Positions 1 through 6,961 of a DNA stretch of 6,961 bases are shown here, piece after piece. Within the stretch, counting starts at the first letter, position 1; each line of letters begins with the position of its first letter. Under the pieces are notes generated by a model that worked only from the letters and a program-made list of their open reading frames with translations, ran no database searches and was not told where the DNA came from. The DNA is from a virus. Lineage: Duplodnaviria; Heunggongvirae; Uroviricota; Caudoviricetes. Location: positions 1-6,961 of IMG/VR virus record IMGVR_UViG_2744054675_000005; one strand, 5' to 3'. The position numbers and the translations under genes are program-made.

Positions 1-1108
1 CCAGTTGCAGGGAAGAGTATCTGCTATAAGAAAAATCACATACGTAATACCCTTCTGGCATATATGCAGCAACACTTTCCTCATCAGGAGCACATCCGGT
101 ATGATATGCACTAATTTTTGCACCAAAGCTACCATGAATTCCAACGTAGAACTTTCGAGCACCTGAATACGGATAGAAATTAAGTTCAGCTTTTTGAGTT
201 ACAATAAATGCACAAACATCGCTATCATCTCTATTTTCTTCAATCTGAATAGCAAATACAGGACTTTTTGCTGCATCGCAAATGTAAAATAAATATTTGT
301 ATTCGTAATACGTCCTAACAGTTTTAGTAAACAAACTGGTATCAGAGAAAACCACTGAGTCTTCTGATATTATTTTAATCCATGATAAGTCACATCCTGC
401 TGAAATTTCTATTTGCTCATTGAGCACAAAACCGGAAAGAATTTTAATTATGCAAAAATCAATGCCATTTTTCCATAGTGGACGCAGTGCAACAGCTGAG
501 TTTAGAGCATCACTAATAGATTTAAAATTACCATATTCCCCAACTGTTATTGTGAATGCATACCTGGAATTAAATACTGCGGCACTCTCTCCAGAGTTAA
601 TAGCTGCAGATATCATGTCATAATTTGATATAAAATCATTTGGCGTGATTATTTCTGCGTTTTTATTGTGCTGTGTTCTAAGTTTTGAATTTACATAAAC
701 ACTTTTAACTGCAATACGGGAGTCGTCAACAAGTATTTCATTACCCTCTGTTGCTAACTCTTGTCTTAACTGATCCGGGTCATACTTCAGCACATTCGGA
801 AAATAGAACTGCTGCACACCGTACGCATCATAAACAGCCATAGAATGGCCCTGTACAGTAACGAATTTGGCAATCTGTCCGTTATATACCGGATATCCAG
901 CAGCGTTAATGATGATTGGTTGCGAAACAGGAACGTGAGATCCATCTTCGTTCTCTACATAAACCTGAATCTGGTTTTCAGGATTTACCGGGTCAGTGTC
1001 AATTTTACCGATATAAATTTTGCCATTAGCTACGGCTTTAAAAGAACGCGCCATAGTGAAGAGTTGCGAAGGCATCGATACGATCACATTGGCTGTAATG
1101 TCTGTCAT
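1..1108 (-). CDS. Tailspike protein, 5' portion (3' end lies beyond the window start). Conserved P22-type N-terminal head-binding domain followed by a divergent receptor-binding domain.
   Basis: Hand translation of the minus strand from ATG at 1108..1106 gives [113 protein letters not shown]..., which closely matches the P22 gp9 N-terminus as I recall it ([11 protein letters not shown]...[34 protein letters not shown]...[12 protein letters not shown]...NVLKYDPDQ). I scanned this frame triplet by triplet and found no stop codon from 1108 down to position 2. SD GGAG lies 8 nt upstream (complement of 1117..1120). Not in the ORF track, presumably because its stop is outside the window. Confidence 0.85.
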
Positions 1109-1165
1109 TTAATTTGCTCCAGATACAAGGAATCGCCGCAGCATGGCTACGGTGAATTTTGGGCA

Positions 1166-1190
1166 TAAAAAAACCCAGCCGAAGCTGGGT
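1166..1190 (-). terminator. Rho-independent terminator downstream of ant
   Basis: Minus-strand RNA reads ACCCAGC-UUCG-GCUGGGU followed by UUUUUUU: a 7-bp GC-rich stem (1173..1179 with 1184..1190), a UUCG tetraloop, and a U7 tract (plus-strand A run 1166..1172). It lies between the ant stop (1209) and the tailspike start (1108). Confidence 0.7.
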
Positions 1191-1208
1191 CGTTGCGTTG
1201 GTTATCTG

Positions 1209-2111
1209 TCAGTAGTTATGTGCTGAAGGAGGTAATTCTTTATTCTTAAGTCTCATCCATGCGGAAAGATTCGTTGGTCCGTCTGGCTCATTAATATCAA
1301 CATCTCGTGTGTGGTTTATTAAAACGTCTCTCGCCATTCCGATAACATACGAGAATTCATGACCGTAGTCGTAGCATCTGCCGGAATAGTTCGATTGAAT
1401 TTGTTTTAATGCCGGATACAGTTCGCGGAATAATGCCTGTGAACGGTTAGCATAATCCCATAGCCATACAAGGCTGTTTGCTTCTTTTGCAGAAAGCTCG
1501 TTGGTTTTCTTCTCTTGTTTGCCAATGAGCTCACCTTCAAGCACTACCCTGTGGATGTACTCTACTGCTTGCGGTATCTGAGATGCATCAAGCTCTTCAA
1601 TACTTTCCACATTGAAACGCTGATGAATCATTGCATAAGCTTCTGGGTACATTAGATGCTTTTTGCTGACCAGCATATTTACAGCATCACGAAGCGGAGT
1701 CCTGTCATCAACAGATGTTTTCTTACGTGCATTTTCTTCCTTTCCCTTTGTCCAGTAGTCATGCAGCACAGTAAAGCATTCTTCCTGGTACTGAATAAGT
1801 TTATCGCGGATGTCAGCACGAACTTTCTCAGGGTTGATGCTGAACAGCCATCCATTTAACTTCTTCAAAGGAAGGCAGAGTAGCTTACGAAGCTTCCCAT
1901 CAGCGGCAACCATGTTCATATGAACACAGTTGAATTTGCTAATCTGCTTCATGAGTTTTGTTTGCTGCGTTGACCAGCTCATTCCAAGGTTTTCAACGAT
2001 TGGCTTCATCGCAACATATGCAACTCCGGCAGCCATGGCGGTGATAATTTGCTGACCGTTGAATGGTACGTAAGAGGTGTTCACTGCTTCTAAAATTGCT
2101 ATACTATTCAT
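1209..2111 (-). CDS. ant: Antirepressor Ant (300 aa)
   Basis: The ORF track lists 1209..2141, but position 2141 is a TTG. The ATG at 2111..2109 has SD GGAGA (complement of 2121..2125) 9 nt upstream and gives exactly 300 aa beginning [53 protein letters not shown]..., which matches my recollection of P22 Ant (length and N-terminus). The position arc -> ant -> tailspike reproduces P22 immI synteny. Confidence 0.9.
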
Positions 2112-2185
2112 GTTGGTTTTTCTCCAAGGATTTACCGACAACCGAAGCCCTGACTGTTACCGCAGTTGGGGCTTCAACTTTTCAC
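2112..2185 (+). ncRNA. Candidate sar-like antisense RNA covering the ant ribosome-binding site
   Basis: A -10-like TATACT at 2100..2105 (inside the first codons of ant, plus strand) would start a transcript near 2112 that is antisense to the ant SD (2121..2125). It would end at a hairpin (gaagccc 2144..2150 pairs with gggcttc 2169..2175, with an inner actg/cagt stem) followed by the U-rich run aacttttcacttcttt. Size (about 70 nt) and position mirror P22 sar. The -35 is weak (tgttca 2078..2083). Confidence 0.35.
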
Positions 2186-2398
2186 TTCTTTAAAGTGCCT
2201 ACCTTCTACAGTTGCTCTGAGATAAAAATTCTTATCTTTACCGTTTAGTGCTTCCCAAGCATCAACAATGCACTTATTACAGATGTGGACTTCTCGATAA
2301 CCAATAGCTTTCCTGTCAATATTAGTGAACATAACAGCTTCTTTATCTGTCAATGTGGATGCATGACAGAAGTCGCAATCTATATAAGATACCTTCAT
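2174..2398 (-). CDS. Small Cys4 zinc-ribbon protein (74 aa) inserted between arc and ant
   Basis: ORF MKVSYIDCDFCHASTLTDKEAVMFTNIDRKAIGYREVHICNKCIVDAWEALNGKDKNFYLRATVEGRHFKEVKS carries two CxxC pairs (C8/C11 and C40/C43). Its ATG (2398..2396) overlaps the arc stop codon (GTATGA), with a G-rich SD-like stretch (GAGAGGGG) just upstream inside the 3' end of arc. Same strand and operon as arc and ant. Confidence 0.55.
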   Translation of the reverse strand: MKVSYIDCDFCHASTLTDKEAVMFTNIDRKAIGYREVHICNKCIVDAWEALNGKDKNFYLRATVEGRHFKEVKS

Positions 2399-2553
2399 AC
2401 CGTTATCCCCTCTCTCTTCAGGCTGTCCAACACTCGCTTGTAAATCTCAGAGTTAACAGATCGCCCGTTCTCTTCAGCTACCTTGCGCACCAAATCCAAT
2501 ACTTCTTTAGGCCACCGCAAATTGAACTGAGGCATTTTTCTTGCACCTTGCAT
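2395..2553 (-). CDS. arc: Arc repressor (52 aa, ribbon-helix-helix)
   Basis: Hand translation of the minus strand gives MQGARKMPQFNLRWPKEVLDLVRKVAEENGRSVNSEIYKRVLDSLKREGITV, near-identical to P22 Arc as I recall it (MKGMSKMPQFNLRWPREVLDLVRKVAEENGRSVNSEIYQRV...), including the DNA-contacting strand PQFNLRW. SD GGAG sits 6 nt upstream of ATG 2553. Missing from the ORF track because it is shorter than 61 aa. An in-frame upstream ATG at 2574 (MSEMELN-) has no SD and no counterpart in P22 Arc. Confidence 0.85.
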   Translation of the reverse strand: MQGARKMPQFNLRWPKEVLDLVRKVAEENGRSVNSEIYKRVLDSLKREGITV

Positions 2554-2577
2554 ATTCAACTCCATTTCACTCATTGA

Positions 2578-2590
2578 TAGTACCGTACTA
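2578..2590. promoter_or_regulatory. Perfect 13-bp palindrome TAGTAC-C-GTACTA; candidate Mnt-type operator at the Pant start site
   Basis: Positions 2578..2590 form a perfect inverted repeat around a central C. The core ACGGT (read on the minus strand) is shared with the centre of the P22 Mnt operator AGGTCCACGGTGGACCT as I recall it. It sits just downstream of the predicted Pant -10 and just upstream of the predicted Pmnt -35, the arrangement expected for an operator that represses Pant and autoregulates Pmnt. Confidence 0.5.
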
Positions 2591-2593
2591 CTA

Positions 2594-2622
2594 TTGAAAG
2601 CGTACTACTACCGTTCTAGCAT
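2594..2622 (+). promoter_or_regulatory. Candidate Pmnt promoter (-35 TTGAAA, 17-bp spacer, -10 TAGCAT)
   Basis: TTGAAA at 2594..2599 and TAGCAT at 2617..2622, followed by SD AAGGAG (2635..2640) and the GTG start of mnt at 2647. The spacer contains the second copy of the CGTACTACTA repeat (2601..2610; first copy 2584..2593). Confidence 0.4.
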
Positions 2623-2627
2623 GTCAA
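2599..2627 (-). promoter_or_regulatory. Candidate Pant promoter (-35 TTGACA; weak -10 TACGCT), overlapping and divergent from Pmnt
   Basis: The minus strand reads TTGACA (complement of 2622..2627), a 17-bp spacer, then TACGCT (complement of 2599..2604). The consensus -35 matches the P22 Pant layout TTGACA-operator-(-10). The -10 is a poor match, so the exact start site is uncertain. Confidence 0.4.
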
Positions 2628-2646
2628 CAAATAAAAGGAGAACGAC

Positions 2647-2889
2647 GTGGCTAGAAATGATCCACAATTCAACGTAAGAATGCCTGATGAGATAAAACAG
2701 CAACTTACGCATATTGCTGCAACAAATCGCCGCTCGATAAACGCAGAGATTATTTCAGCTATCGAACTATGGATAAAAATTCATAAAGGGCAGCTAATAC
2801 CTTCAAGTAGTCGAATCCTGACAAAGTCTGAGCAAGAGGCGTTTGATGTAGCTATTGATGTGTTAAAACGTGTAAGAGATGGAGGATAA
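2647..2889 (+). CDS. mnt: Mnt-like repressor (80 aa, ribbon-helix-helix, maintenance-of-lysogeny type)
   Basis: GTG start with SD AAGGAG 6 nt upstream. The protein MARNDPQFNVRMPDEIKQQLTHIAATNRRSINAEIISAIELWIKIHKGQL... resembles P22 Mnt (MARDDPHFNFRMPMEVREKL...ANGRSMNSELL...) as I recall it. Divergent from arc across a short shared control region, as in P22. Confidence 0.85.
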   Translation: MARNDPQFNVRMPDEIKQQLTHIAATNRRSINAEIISAIELWIKIHKGQLIPSSSRILTKSEQEAFDVAIDVLKRVRDGG

Positions 2890-2891
2890 CC

Positions 2892-3125
2892 ATGGAGCAA
2901 CAACAAGGGTCGCCATTATCATTGATTATTATGGTGATTTTTTTCGTTTTTATCTTTTTTATACCTGCGTTAAAAATATCCAAAAAGGCCGGTTTTGACT
3001 GGAAGATGGCTGTATGTTTAACAATCCCTGGCTTTAACGTGGTGGCGTGGCTCGCGCTTGCGTTCATGGATTGGCCAATTCACAAGTATCTACCAAAAGA
3101 TGTGAATCGTAAGGATGCAAAATGA
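2892..3125 (+). CDS. Small two-helix inner-membrane protein (77 aa), translationally coupled to mnt; function unknown, superinfection-exclusion candidate
   Basis: ATG at 2892 lies 2 nt after the mnt stop codon, with SD GGAGGA (2881..2886) inside the 3' end of mnt. The protein MEQQQGSPLSLIIMVIFFVFIFFIPALKISKKAGFDWKMAVCLTIPGFNVVAWLALAFMDWPIHKYLPKDVNRKDAK has two hydrophobic segments separated by a short basic loop. The region is AT-rich. Confidence 0.6.
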   Translation: MEQQQGSPLSLIIMVIFFVFIFFIPALKISKKAGFDWKMAVCLTIPGFNVVAWLALAFMDWPIHKYLPKDVNRKDAK

Positions 3126-3331
3126 ATAAAAAACAGCTTATTAAGTCAAAAACGTCAAGCAAGGAAGAATTAGAGAAGGAGCTAAACTCCCTGAAATATG
3201 CTCTGTGTCTGGTTTACTCAAGACTGCCAATGGAAGATAAAAACGCCATTTACAATGAAATGATTAGCAGCCTTGATTTTAACGATAGAGACCTAGCATC
3301 CCACCTCAACAGCTTCCGCGTCCCTGAGTAA
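3122..3331 (+). CDS. Hypothetical protein (69 aa), translationally coupled to the upstream membrane-protein gene
   Basis: Its ATG overlaps the upstream stop (ATGA at 3122..3125), with SD AAGGA about 7 nt upstream. The protein MNKKQLIKSKTSSKEELEKELNSLKYALCLVYSRLPMEDKNAIYNEMISSLDFNDRDLASHLNSFRVPE is charged and predicted helical. I recognise no family. Confidence 0.5.
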   Translation: MNKKQLIKSKTSSKEELEKELNSLKYALCLVYSRLPMEDKNAIYNEMISSLDFNDRDLASHLNSFRVPE

Positions 3332-3491
3332 TTCTGTTGCGGATTTGCTTCTTGCGGTGGTTTAAGCTGGAGAGCTTGGCTTCTGCTTCTGATATTTGCG
3401 CATCTAGATCTTTAAGCTCAAGATCTGAAAGTCGCTGGTCAAGCAGGGTTTGATTCAACTCAATGTTGTTCAGGCGTTCTTCTATGGTCAT
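3306..3491 (-). CDS. Hypothetical coiled-coil protein (61 aa), convergent with and overlapping the 3' end of the 69-aa ORF
   Basis: Strong SD on the minus strand (TAAGGAG, then 5 nt, then ATG at 3491..3489). The protein MTIEERLNNIELNQTLLDQRLSDLELKDLDAQISEAEAKLSSLNHRKKQIRNRITQGRGSC has a heptad-like Leu/Ile pattern. Its 3' end overlaps 3122..3331 by 26 nt on the opposite strand. Its start is only about 15 nt downstream of the terminator hairpin, so it has no obvious promoter of its own. Confidence 0.4.
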   Translation of the reverse strand: MTIEERLNNIELNQTLLDQRLSDLELKDLDAQISEAEAKLSSLNHRKKQIRNRITQGRGSC

Positions 3492-3504
3492 GATTTCTCC
3501 TTAT

Positions 3505-3536
3505 AAAAAACCCACCTGACGGTGGGTTTCATTTCT
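3505..3536. terminator. Bidirectional rho-independent terminator between the lipoprotein gene and the mnt-side accessory genes
   Basis: Stem cccacc (3511..3516) pairs with ggtggg (3521..3526) around loop tgac, extendable to 9 bp by A/T pairs. On the minus strand it is followed by UUUUUU-AU; on the plus strand by UUUCAUUUCUU. Confidence 0.65.
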
Positions 3537-3955
3537 TAATCTTGCTTCGTGGAAGGTATAAGAGATGCGTTTGCCTCTTTTGGCTTCAAGGTATACATCC
3601 CACCATTAAATGGATCAACAGCAAGCCAACCAATTAACCCACCAAACACAAGGTTTCCACCAATATACCAACCATTAGCATTGGCTTTGATTGGCAGGGT
3701 AACTGGTTCGTACCCATCCTTTTCCATAGTGATCTGGTAGCTCTTTTTGCCAAAATAACTACCATCTGACTTGGCAAGAGTTACTCCTTGTGGAGTTTTA
3801 CCTTGCGCAACAATCACACCTGATTCATCTTTTACCTTAAAGCTCGCACCAGAAGGATTGCTGTTCACTTGCACAAGTTGCGTTTCATCACCAACAATAG
3901 TTGCGCACCCAGATAACATGATAGCGCCAGCAACGACGCTAATAATCCTCTTCAT
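3536..3955 (-). CDS. Lipoprotein (139 aa from MKRIIS; the alternative ATG at 3967 adds MEID) with a PEGA-like beta domain and a Gly-rich C-terminal segment; sits in the sieA-equivalent position
   Basis: Signal peptide with lipobox MKRIISVVAGAIMLSG|C. The mature part SNPSGASFKVKDESGVIVAQGKTPQGVTL...YQITMEKDGYEPVTLPI fits the PEGA-domain pattern (P-x-G-A ... G-x-TP ... K-x-GY). C-terminal GWYIGGNLVFGGLIGWLAVDPFNGGMY. Located directly downstream of the large ejection-protein gene on the same strand. Confidence 0.8.
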   Translation of the reverse strand: MKRIISVVAGAIMLSGCATIVGDETQLVQVNSNPSGASFKVKDESGVIVAQGKTPQGVTLAKSDGSYFGKKSYQITMEKDGYEPVTLPIKANANGWYIGGNLVFGGLIGWLAVDPFNGGMYTLKPKEANASLIPSTKQD

Positions 3956-4050
3956 ATCAATTTCCATATCTAAAAAACCGGAAACATCCTAATGACAAAC
4001 TATTCAAATGTGAAGCACGAGATAAGATCAATCCATCCGTGGACGACTAA

Positions 4051-6162
4051 TTACTCCTGTGTCATTCCGCTTAGCGATGCCACAATCCCAGCCCTCGACA
4101 AACGCTGGAACTCTTCGTTTCCTAGTGCATCGCGAATTGCTTTTACGGCGGCCTTATTTGCCATAAATCTGCGTTCCGCCGCCGCTAATGCTTCTTTACT
4201 TCCGCCAGCTCTTACTGCTTTCGTGGCTTCCTGAACTGCTTTCTCTATCGCATATCGGCCGCTACGCGTGGTGGCAATTTTAGATACAGCACCTTTTAAC
4301 CCGGCGCCAACTAAAGCACCTGCGGCAGCGCCTGCAATGCCCCCTCCTGCTCCACCAACAATGGCACCTGATGTTGAGTTGGCAATTGCATTTAACACTG
4401 TTGATGTGACGTTGGATAAACCGGCATCCAGATCGCGTAGTACATTGGCAGTTCTCCCTGTTCTTTCAATATACTGCTGAGGTTTCACTGCTGCTCTTGC
4501 AAGAGTGCCATATGCATCAGCAATTCTTCCGAGTTCTGAGGAATATCTGCTAATGGCTTTTACATTTTGTGGGGTAAGTATCCCTGCGATATGGTTAATT
4601 CCTGCTGCATCAGCTTTGCCACCACGTACACCATGCGAGATAGCATCTTGCAACATTGATGATATAGCAGGAACACGCTCTGATTCTGGCAGCGCGCGGA
4701 TCATAGAATGGAACCCAGCAGGACCATTAAGACCTTTAGCTGACGATGATTGAAGGGATTTTACTCCATTCGTAATCAGTGCATCTGTTGCCAAATCACG
4801 CCCGAAAACAGACTCTGCACTCTCTTGTGCTGATAACCTCGCTTTAGACAGATCATTAGCTTTCTGCCAGTCATCAAGAAATCCGCCGTTTTCCGCCATT
4901 GTGCGCATATCATCAGTAATTGCCCGGCGTATTTCCCCTGCTCTCCTTGCCGCATTTGCCTCTCCGCTACGCTTATATTTTTGCTCCGCATCAGCAAATT
5001 TCGCTCTCCATGCTTTCATGCCATCAAATGTTACTCCACCTTGATTGTTTGCCTGAACAAACTGTTTCATTTCAGGAGTAAGCGGTATGCCAGCAGATCG
5101 CTCTGCCTGAATAACGGCATTACCATTTAGCATTCTTGCTTTTTGATTTGGCATTGTTGACCGCACGTCATCCCATGCCGCGCGCTCGGCATCCTTCATC
5201 TGATCAAGATTTTGAAGAATCCTTTGTTTTATAGCCGCACTTTTTTCTGATGCCGTTCCAGATGCGGCCCCAAATTCATCAAGGTTTCGACTTAACTTTG
5301 ATGATATTTCGTTAAATGCTGCCTGATGGGCGTCCTGAACAATTCCTGGTGTTGATGCCAATGCGCCTTCGGCTTGTGCAATTCCACGACTTCCAGATCG
5401 CATTCCTGGTGTTAATGCGTTTATATCAATTCCAGCAGACTCAGCCGCTTTTGCTACATCTTCGGACACATTAGCGGCCTGACTGGCAATTGACTGACGC
5501 CCAGCACCTGACTTTGCCATCCTGGAAACATCATTAGCAGAATTCAGTGCTGCACCACCAAGAGCCTGTGAAACCCTTGGCGCAATAACGCGCCCGACAC
5601 CTGAAAGAACGCCTTGAGCACCAATATTGATACCACCGTTAATGGCAGCATTTTGTGCAAAGTCGCCCTCCTGATTTGCAGCATCAGCAAGAGAACCTGC
5701 AATCATGTTTCCTGCGGAACCGATATCTCCAGCGAGCTTTGCTGGCGCTCCAGCAGCTTTTGCCGCTGTGCCAATTGGCAGGAGATACCCACCAATTGTT
5801 TCACCGGCTTGCGCATAAGGGTCTGTCGGTCGATCGACTGGACGATAGACATCATCCAAAACCTTGGGGCCACCAAGCCCCTGGCTGATTGCATTAATCA
5901 GACTTGCGCCACCCTGCAATACGTCAAATGGTATGTTTACCAGACCACGGCCAGCCTGTTCTGCAATTTGCCCTGCGCTTTGACCACCAGTGAGCCAGTC
6001 AGTGGCTTTTCCTACCAGAGATTGTTCTTCTGGCTGCGATTGGTTTTGAGTGGATTGATCACCAGAAGACAGCATCTGAGCAATGCGACGTGCTCCCTCA
6101 GTATCACCGGCAGCATCAGCATTCCTTAACGCCGTCATCAACTGTTCGCGACTATAGGCCAT
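4051..6162 (-). CDS. Virion ejection (DNA-transfer) protein, P22 gp16-like by position (703 aa)
   Basis: Long GC-rich ORF with SD GGAGGG. Its start is coupled to the upstream ORF through a TAATG stop/start overlap at 6160..6164. It is the last large gene before the sieA/mnt region, which is where gene 16 sits in P22. The protein is Ala/Gly/Gln-rich and has a glycine-zipper-like hydrophobic stretch [27 protein letters not shown] (about 4288..4368). Function is assigned by synteny and composition only. Confidence 0.7.
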
Positions 6163-6961
6163 TACTGCCCTCCGAGATATTTATTAATCAGGTCATCATC
6201 AGAAAGCTGCTGTTGAGACGGTTGTATGTCCTTCCCGTATTTCTGTTGCATACGTTTCTGAGCCATCTCAGTGGTTTTTATGATTGTTTTGATAGCTGCT
6301 CTGGCTGATTTTTCAGACTGATTTGGGGACAAACTACCAATAGCATCCATTACCTTTTGCCCCTCGGCATTACTTAAAGCCCCCATCCCTTTCATCTGCT
6401 GAATGCCAGATAAGAATCCCTGAGATTTCAGTGTGTCAACCAGAGTTTCTGTATCAGCAGCCTCTGTTCCTGGAATGAATCTACTCGATAGTGGGTTTAG
6501 GTTTGTTCCGAAATATCCAGTGAATCCTGGGCTATTAAGAACTTTTGTAGCCGTCTCTATCGTTCTGGAAAGATTATCCATTCCAGAGTTGTACGCATCA
6601 GCCTTATCTCGCTTTGCCTGCTCCATAGCTTGCTGATTCTGCAATCTCTTGTCATGCAATTCAGCAAGTTTTAAGGCATTAGTTTCATTTGCGATGAGTC
6701 TGTCGTATTTCTTGTCCTCTAATTCCATTCGACGAAGATTGACATTTTGTTGCGCAATATTGTTGCTTGCCCACCCTCTGGCATTTGTCATGTCATTATT
6801 GCGGATTGTTTCGTTAATTCTTTGCTGCTCCTGCTGGCGACCAACCATCTTATCCTGATAATCCAGCATTTTATCCGGACCAACAGCCCCTAGCGTCATA
6901 GTAGTCAGCATGTGTGATAGCTGCTCTGGATTCTGGATACCTGTCTGAATCATCCAGTCAG
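6162..6961 (-). CDS. Virion ejection protein, P22 gp20-like by position (C-terminal portion; 5' end beyond the window)
   Basis: The reading frame stays open to the window edge (codons upstream of the listed Met at 6953 are not stops). Gln/Asn-rich with coiled-coil-like segments; the stop overlaps the start of the 703-aa gene. Assigned by synteny only. Confidence 0.6.

Follow-up and report, generated by a model that had tools for sequence, protein, structure and literature searches.

What does a small predicted lipoprotein gene do at the place in a P22-like prophage where P22 itself carries sieA? The question is raised by a stretch of DNA of 6,961 nucleotides (nt), positions 1 to 6,961 of the IMG/VR record IMGVR_UViG_2744054675_000005, hereafter the window, which covers, on its minus strand, the final part of the late operon of a prophage of the P22-like (Lederbergvirus) kind. 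The variable stretch between genes 16 and 9 of such phages is the "ant moron" of Casjens and colleagues (PMC2629481), and in P22 it houses sieA (PMC2629481, PMC10883804). Comparison with the P22 annotation places the lipoprotein gene in the same interval, from gene 16 to mnt, as the initial annotation had proposed, with the qualification that it runs in the direction of gene 16 while P22 sieA is antiparallel to gene 16. Here we report that the gene, with a promoter and a terminator of its own, forms a self-contained one-gene moron in the ant moron of this prophage, and that its product is very probably a prophage-expressed moron lipoprotein acting on the envelope.

Envelope-altering prophage morons drive phage resistance, serum resistance and virulence. 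The module is common, being found in 127 of 5,426 complete Escherichia coli genomes (about 2%), always on the chromosome, as well as in the Salmonella phage epsilon34 and in the Crohn's-associated strain LF82, and relatives are encoded on 111 IMG/VR contigs. The gene has nevertheless been annotated as hypothetical since 2008.

Module boundaries and expression

The gene, its control elements and the features predicted in its product are as follows (aa, amino acids).

4009..4014 (-): -35 hexamer TTCACA of a sigma70-type promoter, found by promoter scan
3986..3991 (-): -10 hexamer TAGGAT, with a 17-nt spacer to the -35
3961..3965 (-): Shine-Dalgarno-like GGAAA, 5 nt before the ATG at 3955 and the same in both upstream types described below
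3536..3955 (-): coding sequence of a 139-aa prolipoprotein, with stop codon TAA at 3536-3538
3908..3955 (-): signal peptide, residues 1-16, with K2 and R3 as n-region and a 10-residue hydrophobic core, ending L-S-G
3905..3907 (-): Cys17, predicted lipid-modified first mature residue, with Ala at +2
3677..3883 (-): PEGA-like, transthyretin-fold beta-sandwich, residues 25-93
3593..3676 (-): family-defining Gly-rich hydrophobic motif NGWYIGGNLVFGGLIGWLAVDPFNGGMY, residues 94-121
3505..3529 (-): intrinsic terminator AAACCCACC-GTCA-GGTGGGTTT plus T-run, the 3' boundary of the mobile module

The open reading frame (ORF) was first called at 3536-3967 (-). The frame itself is real, but the start has to be moved, since the homologues begin at the ATG at 3955; this second in-frame ATG, and not the one at 3967, is most likely the true start. 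The upstream start would add the residues MEID and is probably unused. PHROG 6823 aligns from residue 5 of the longer ORF, which corresponds to the 3955 start, and MK(K/R) is the N-terminus in 54 of 54 aligned close homologues. The annotated coding sequence is 139 aa in epsilon34, in the LF82 prophage Gally and in vB_EcoP-720R6 (720R6), the last two having no ATG at the upstream position. The ORF is intact at this length in 74 of 74 near-identical IMG/VR contigs, and the ratio of non-synonymous to synonymous substitution rates (dN/dS) is 0.015-0.045 against epsilon34 and 720R6 (17-22 synonymous and 1-4 non-synonymous codon changes). A chance ORF or a pseudogene was rejected on these two grounds, and the protein is under strong purifying selection.

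The initial annotation had marked a weak promoter with the hexamers listed above. That promoter is retained, on grounds other than the score of its hexamers, as a hexamer scan alone performed at chance level (4 sites found against 3.8 expected). The 74 contigs fall into two diverged upstream types, between which the hexamers are identical at 10 of 12 positions and the spacer at 7 of 17, with a spacing of 17 nt in both. The -35 is kept as TTCAC(A/G) in both types, and every common upstream variant listed for these contigs has TAGGAT or TAAGAT as its -10. The promoter is supported by this pattern of conservation, by the module boundary and by RNA sequencing (RNA-seq) of an orthologue. Inspection of the upstream region by eye revealed no convincing PhoP-box-like element.

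At the other end, the terminator has the stem CCCACC/GGTGGG-T6. Its palindrome was reported by the scan on the plus strand only, and the minus-strand hairpin was read from the sequence; the hairpin is annotated as a rho-independent terminator in epsilon34. Only 2 of the 74 contigs depart from this stem and T-run, whereas the loop and flanks vary. The block common to the window and epsilon34 (megablast) spans 3505-4015 only, from the terminator to one base past the -35, and its flanks come from other lineages, gene 16 being HK620-like and the downstream module Emek/Kapi1-like. What phages exchange is thus exactly the unit between the -35 hexamer and the terminator. The lipoprotein gene has a GC content of ~42%, against 48-52% in gene 16, and is absent from P22 and HK620. 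In the terms used by Juhala and Hendrix to define a moron, the gene has a predicted promoter and a predicted terminator of its own; related phages have or lack it between otherwise adjacent genes, and its composition differs; and its 98.6%-identical Gally orthologue is expressed from the repressed prophage.

Gene 15 of epsilon34 (ACF16641.1) is the same gene, with 99.3% aa identity, the same terminator and the same ant moron position. Together with it, the orthologues GALLYPH_14 / LF82_139 of Gally and URC09765.1 of 720R6 are 97.8-99.3% identical to the window protein, and all three are annotated as hypothetical only. In epsilon34 and Gally an opposite-strand gene lies between gene 16 and the lipoprotein gene, which in the window follows gene 16 directly; on the downstream side the window gene is joined to an Emek/Kapi1-type module in place of mnt. 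The lipoprotein gene of the window is probably also read late, from gene 16, because the two are co-directional and the gap between them (4050-3968) contains no terminator. The epsilon34 paper does not count gene 15 among the genes that it expects to be expressed from the prophage (PMC2629481).

Expression was taken from RNA-seq data for E. coli LF82 and its prophage Gally, in which LF82_139 is the orthologue. The values below are from S1 Table of Misson et al. (PMC9928086) and are given as log2(fpkm+5), where fpkm is fragments per kilobase per million; ranges span replicates. Cultures were in lysogeny broth (LB, stationary), in Dulbecco's modified Eagle's medium (DMEM, both time points, 1 h and 6 h) and in macrophages.

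LF82_139 (lipoprotein): LB 6.2/4.8; DMEM 9.8-10.5; macrophage 1 h 11.0; macrophage 6 h 9.4-9.5
C2 repressor: LB 8.9-9.9; DMEM 10.5-11.0; macrophage 1 h 12.0; macrophage 6 h 11.2-11.3
LF82_137 (injection protein, gene 16 homologue): LB 3.6-3.9; DMEM 3.6-3.7; macrophage 1 h 4.0; macrophage 6 h 4.1
Perceval Bor: LB 4.4/4.1; DMEM 8.1-8.5; macrophage 1 h 10.8-11.1; macrophage 6 h 10.9-11.1

In DMEM, and in macrophages at 1 h, no Gally gene except the repressor is transcribed more than LF82_139 (PMC9928086, S1 Table). It comes near repressor levels in DMEM and macrophages with the adjacent late genes silent, and is weak in stationary LB. Transcription of the Gally gene in the repressed prophage does not depend on the late operon and varies with the conditions; together with the conserved promoter, this supports the expression in the lysogen that the initial annotation had thought possible for the window gene. 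Gally has been said to carry no morons, on a scoring made in LB only with a 5-fold cut-off (PMC9928086). LF82_139 was 3.3-fold above background in LB, and was overlooked as a moron because the cut-off was applied in that medium only (PMC9928086). As a separate observation, GALLYPH_13, GALLYPH_14 and GALLYPH_17 (LF82_138, LF82_139 and LF82_765) all rise 10- to 60-fold in DMEM and macrophages with the late genes silent (PMC9928086).

The predicted lipoprotein and its family

The N-terminus, MKRIISVVAGAIMLSG followed by Cys17, is a canonical lipoprotein signal peptide with the lipobox LSG-C. The features expected of a signal peptidase II substrate were all found: a charged n-region, a hydrophobic core, a lipobox of the form [LVI][ASTVI][GAS]C and a Cys at a position between about 15 and 35. 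Cys17 is invariant among 54 close homologues, and of 270 collected family members 228 have a lipobox, 208 of these with Ala at +2. In E. coli the +2 rule governs lipoprotein sorting to the outer membrane, and Lol-dependent sorting to the outer membrane is therefore predicted from the Ala at +2. By established rules, the prolipoprotein would be exported by Sec and then lipidated at Cys17 through Lgt, LspA and Lnt, giving a mature protein of 123 aa.

The first domain of the mature chain scores 17.5-17.6 bits against Pfam PEGA (PF08308; E 0.004), below the gathering threshold of 20.8, and 25 of 46 relatives match PEGA at E<=0.1, the best at 3e-5. The structural model shows a beta-sandwich of the transthyretin / carboxypeptidase-regulatory-like fold; the domain is PEGA-like in fold and not a formal member of PF08308. 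A BFVD fold search returned one viral protein at 35% identity and otherwise generic sandwich matches, and a sequence search of the PDB gave chance matches to RNA polymerase beta' only (E 0.1-0.2).

The Gly-rich segment that follows, GGNLVFGGLIGWLAVDPFNGG (residues 99-119), lies within the best-conserved region of the family, whose signature is NGWYIGGNxxFGGLIGWLxVDPxxGxMY. Mean column conservation of this motif is 0.90 in close and 0.74 in distant relatives, with Y97, G100, G109, D114, P115 and G118 invariant. The motif is uniformly hydrophobic and not amphipathic (<H> 0.74, muH 0.08). AlphaFold2 (AF2) models it as a low-confidence helix at residues 95-112 and packs the C-terminal hairpin confidently, with a predicted local distance difference test (pLDDT) score of 88. 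Of the features for which the initial annotation had singled out this protein, the clean lipobox and the Gly-rich C-terminus are thus real and conserved throughout the family, and the PEGA-like beta-rich segment agrees in fold, though its score is sub-threshold.

A bitopic inner-membrane transmembrane helix was considered for the motif and rejected, given a relative in which an OmpA-like barrel follows it; the packed C-terminal hairpin also opposes this assignment, as do five Gly and one Asn within 18 residues. In the relative in question, P0141 (365 aa), an OmpA-like transmembrane beta-barrel (PF01389, E 2e-15) is fused C-terminally to the lipoprotein module. The part of the polypeptide beyond the hydrophobic motif is therefore exported, and the module is tied to the outer membrane. 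Many other family members have C-terminal extensions, some of them long Pro/Ala-rich tails.

Relatives numbered 715 among clusters at 90% identity, and 3,705 representatives at 50% identity matched with E<=1e-3, of which 1,329 reached E<=1e-10. They are spread over the Gamma-, Beta-, Zeta- and Deltaproteobacteria, and most copies outside E. coli are chromosomal and lie outside prophages. Sequence comparison thus delineates a large, uncharacterised proteobacterial lipoprotein family that would combine a PEGA-like sandwich with the motif WY-G-N...G-x4-DP-x2-G. Across Proteobacteria, identity between the phage protein and chromosomal genes outside prophages is 50-79%, the closest being an Erwiniaceae gene (79%) between ABC permease genes. 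The Photorhabdus copy lies between rimJ-like and murJ genes, that of Lonsdalea adjoins lpxM-like, EAL and mtfA genes, Arsenophonus is also among the chromosomal contexts, and other copies adjoin mutS, adhE, ydbH, pgaA or type VI secretion system genes. Synteny of 80 genomic loci revealed no conserved partner gene, conservation being at genus level only. The phage copies keep every family-invariant residue.

Capture of the family by temperate phages has occurred repeatedly. In lambdoid prophages of E. coli and Proteus, a 68%-identical copy is flanked by the tail chaperone T gene and the gene for the tape measure, an interval that is the site of the HK97 gp15 exclusion moron (PMC3594210). In Pseudescherichia-type prophages the copy is between gpI and gpJ. 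The copies in three unrelated prophage contexts each have a terminator of their own as well. A distant family member, with an hhalign probability of 99.1% (E 4e-19), is found in the temperate Caulobacter phage DMCA (DMCA_071c, L096 3998-4387), 71 base pairs downstream of the repressor and on the same strand, a position that by analogy may be called rexAB-like.

Two of these prophage contexts hold further genes of interest. The E. coli lambdoid prophages with the 68%-identical copy (loci L003-L006, ~12260-13425, e.g. ED1a) have a porin gene (Porin_1) between their gpM and gpL homologues, which is a second envelope moron in the tail operon. In a Proteus prophage (L008, 8490-9209) a cI-like repressor (HTH_3 plus Peptidase_S24) encoded on the opposite strand and a Bro-N antirepressor come after the lipoprotein gene and make up a second immunity-like module inside the tail gene region.

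Proposed role and rival explanations

We tentatively favour, at somewhat less than even chances, a condition-induced, envelope-conditioning factor of lysogenic conversion that would follow a logic like that of Bor and serve the benefit of the lysogen. The PEGA-like beta-sandwich would stand in the periplasm, and the invariant hydrophobic Gly-rich segment would be hidden within the outer membrane's inner leaflet, inside a homo-oligomer or at the contact with a conserved partner in the envelope. The target would most likely be a conserved envelope component rather than a phage-specific protein, because the phage copies keep the family-invariant residues and are so close to chromosomal genes. Such a target, together with Bor-like induction in DMEM and macrophages, is the reason for favouring envelope conditioning, and any exclusion of phages would then be a by-product of the envelope change and not a dedicated receptor block.

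The lambda Bor / Iss lipoproteins (serum resistance) are likewise small moron lipoproteins expressed from a prophage, and the LB, DMEM and macrophage profile of Perceval Bor is nearly identical to that of LF82_139 in the same strain and samples. Bor and the window protein have no sequence or family match, their folds differ (a PEGA-like sandwich with a Gly-rich motif being predicted for the window protein), and the Bor gene adjoins lysis genes while the window gene does not.

Several points weigh against envelope conditioning or against parts of it. Exclusion genes are classically found at the sites that the family occupies in phages: the sieA interval, the site of HK97 gp15, and positions beside gpJ and beside a repressor. 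The model confidence for the motif is low (pLDDT about 55 in AF2), and its insertion into a membrane is predicted, as are the lipidation and the outer-membrane localisation of the protein. The upstream region of the Gally gene (type B) shares the hexamers but is ~60% identical to that of the window (type A), and the induction in DMEM relative to LB could in part be an effect of growth phase. A literature search on PEGA lipoproteins in prophages, exclusion by prophage outer-membrane lipoproteins and the ant moron found no functional study, and no phenotype of the gene is mentioned in the examined text of a CRISPR interference (CRISPRi) study on gut colonisation by LF82.

The main rival explanation, somewhat less likely, is that the product is a dedicated superinfection-exclusion lipoprotein, which would in effect take the place of SieA in prophages without it. 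From the periplasmic face of the outer membrane it would block an outer-membrane receptor, or it would keep the ejection or tape-measure proteins of an incoming phage from forming a trans-envelope channel. Expression from the prophage suits this explanation, and so do the positions: the gene is in the gene 16-mnt interval where P22 has sieA, the 68%-identical copy is exactly at the site of the HK97 gp15 exclusion moron (PMC3594210), another copy is between gpI and gpJ, and the distant member is co-oriented just 3' of a phage repressor, like rexAB. P22-type SieA was found within 6 kb in 0 of 80 viral loci carrying the lipoprotein gene, although this test would miss SieA of types B and C, which are ~25% identical to type A. 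The support is positional, however, and the gene matched no model or defence-protein family of PADLOC-DB v2.0.0 at E<=0.1. Its carriers differ in receptors and delivery (tailspike podoviruses and J-type siphoviruses), so that no single phage target is evident, and expression that is weak in stationary LB and depends strongly on the conditions is unusual for standing exclusion. Moreover, the phage copies are undiverged from widespread chromosomal homologues outside defence islands, whereas Cor and Llp are phage-restricted and HK97 gp15 has diverged from YebO. Exclusion is no more likely than a Bor-like role in the envelope or in fitness.

Comparison with known exclusion proteins agrees with the unlikeness to SieA, Cor, Llp and Bor that had been noticed at the outset. 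The protein is homologous neither to P22 SieA (BLASTP E 0.04 over 31 aa) nor to HK97 gp15, and the multi-pass architecture of SieA is absent, the window protein having one signal peptide and one Gly-rich segment. SieA and HK97 gp15 are alpha-helical inner-membrane proteins without a lipobox; like the window gene they are morons expressed from the prophage, in genome intervals where a window-type gene or a homologue sits, and gp15/YebO likewise has chromosomal relatives. Like the predicted window protein, Cor (phi80, N15, HK022, T1) and Llp (T5) are lipoproteins of the outer membrane that phages encode close to tail or host-range genes. The Cor model NF047972 scored 13.3 bits against a cut-off of 31, over residues 5-33 (the signal peptide) only, and the match to the Cor family phrog_1119 covers residues 5-24 only. 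Mature Cor is about half the size of the window protein, and neither Cor nor Llp has a broad chromosomal family. Cor and Llp block FhuA; we know of no link of the window lipoprotein to FhuA. NCBIfam yielded no meaningful match; a further sub-threshold one, to the Leptospira family LEPBI_I2678 (22.8 against 240 bits), covers the C-terminal motif.

It is also conceivable, if improbable, that the gene encodes a SlyB-like oligomerising factor of outer-membrane remodelling, which, once induced in host-like conditions, would by analogy harden the envelope (against serum, antimicrobial peptides and macrophages) and broadly block trans-envelope DNA delivery by unrelated phages; if true, this would be a new, receptor-independent mode of prophage-encoded protection. 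The glycine-zipper lipoproteins SlyB/Pcp (PF05433) have a lipid anchor, a Gly-rich hydrophobic element and a beta-sandwich, and are induced in host-like or stress conditions. The window protein would have the same combination of elements with the domain order reversed. Its motif is, however, a single segment of 18 residues where SlyB/Pcp have a two-helix hairpin, and neither the window protein nor 46 relatives gave a hit to PF05433 at E<=0.1.

A role in the lytic cycle is very improbable. It would suppose late read-through from gene 16, with an envelope change that counters readsorption or inactivation of progeny on debris, as Llp of T5 has reportedly been proposed to do, or with an aid to lysis. 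The gene is co-directional with gene 16 with no terminator between, and the lambdoid copies lie inside the late tail operon on the same strand. Against this, the gene has its own promoter and terminator, and its orthologue is highly transcribed while the late genes are silent. It is far from the lysis cassette with no i-spanin partner, Gally having a separate Rz, and its absence from most P22-like phages, including P22, HK620 and Sf6, makes it dispensable for growth. The initial annotation had named a conserved virion or lysis component as the finding that would overturn its proposal; the lipoprotein is neither, and no spanin hits were obtained. An o-spanin of the Rz1 type was rejected given the location between gene 16 and mnt with no i-spanin nearby, the 123-aa mature beta-sandwich and the separate Rz of Gally, and the reading as a virion component was rejected as well.

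That the gene is a neutral passenger, or has a role unrelated to the envelope and hitch-hikes in a recombination-prone region, agrees with the rapid flux of the ant moron (PMC2629481) and with the lack of a reported phenotype, but is scarcely credible in view of the low dN/dS, the intact ORF, conserved promoter hexamers and conserved terminator across the contigs, the independent capture at at least four kinds of phage site and the family-wide conservation of signal peptide and lipobox.

The kind of element is familiar, and the data force no new mechanism. With a function assigned, thousands of homologous genes on proteobacterial chromosomes could be annotated too, and it would become clear whether the hot spots of sieA and gp15 are interchangeable as sites for genes that act on the envelope.

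Surrounding genes

The other genes of the window are listed below from right to left, i.e. in the reading direction of the late operon.

6162-6953 (-): gene 20 homologue, 3' part; Inj_translocase, phrog_2534
4051-6162 (-): homologue of gene 16, "DNA transfer protein"; phrog_770
3306-3491 (-): 61-aa ORF, coiled-coil; phrog_7586
3122-3331 (+): 69-aa ORF; phrog_16466
2892-3125 (+): 77-aa ORF with two predicted transmembrane segments; phrog_32536
2647-2889 (+): mnt-like gene of the Arc family
2395-2574: arc
2174-2398 (-): 74-aa ORF between arc and ant
1209-2141: ant
from ~1108 (-): tailspike head-binding domain, P22 gp9-type, which leaves the window at its left end

The 61-aa ORF begins directly past the lipoprotein terminator and has a strong Shine-Dalgarno sequence, AAGGAG. 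The module at 3200-3533 shares 98.8% identity with Salmonella phage Emek and 97.4% with E. coli phage Kapi1, and the locus is therefore a mosaic junction. The 77-aa and 69-aa ORFs lie directly 3' of the mnt-like gene on the same strand and may be co-transcribed with mnt in the lysogen; the former, a small membrane protein, is a candidate exclusion or conversion factor too.

The tailspike region at 1-750 has a GC content of 34-36% and no megablast match among the 5,426 E. coli genomes, and its sequence suggests an unusual receptor-binding domain. In P22 the interval between arc and ant contains the sar antisense RNA only. The 74-aa ORF found there in the window overlaps the arc stop (ATGA) and has a CxxC...CxxC pattern, with a weak match to zf-C4_ClpX (E 0.0015) and none among the PHROGs; this insert could change the control of ant.

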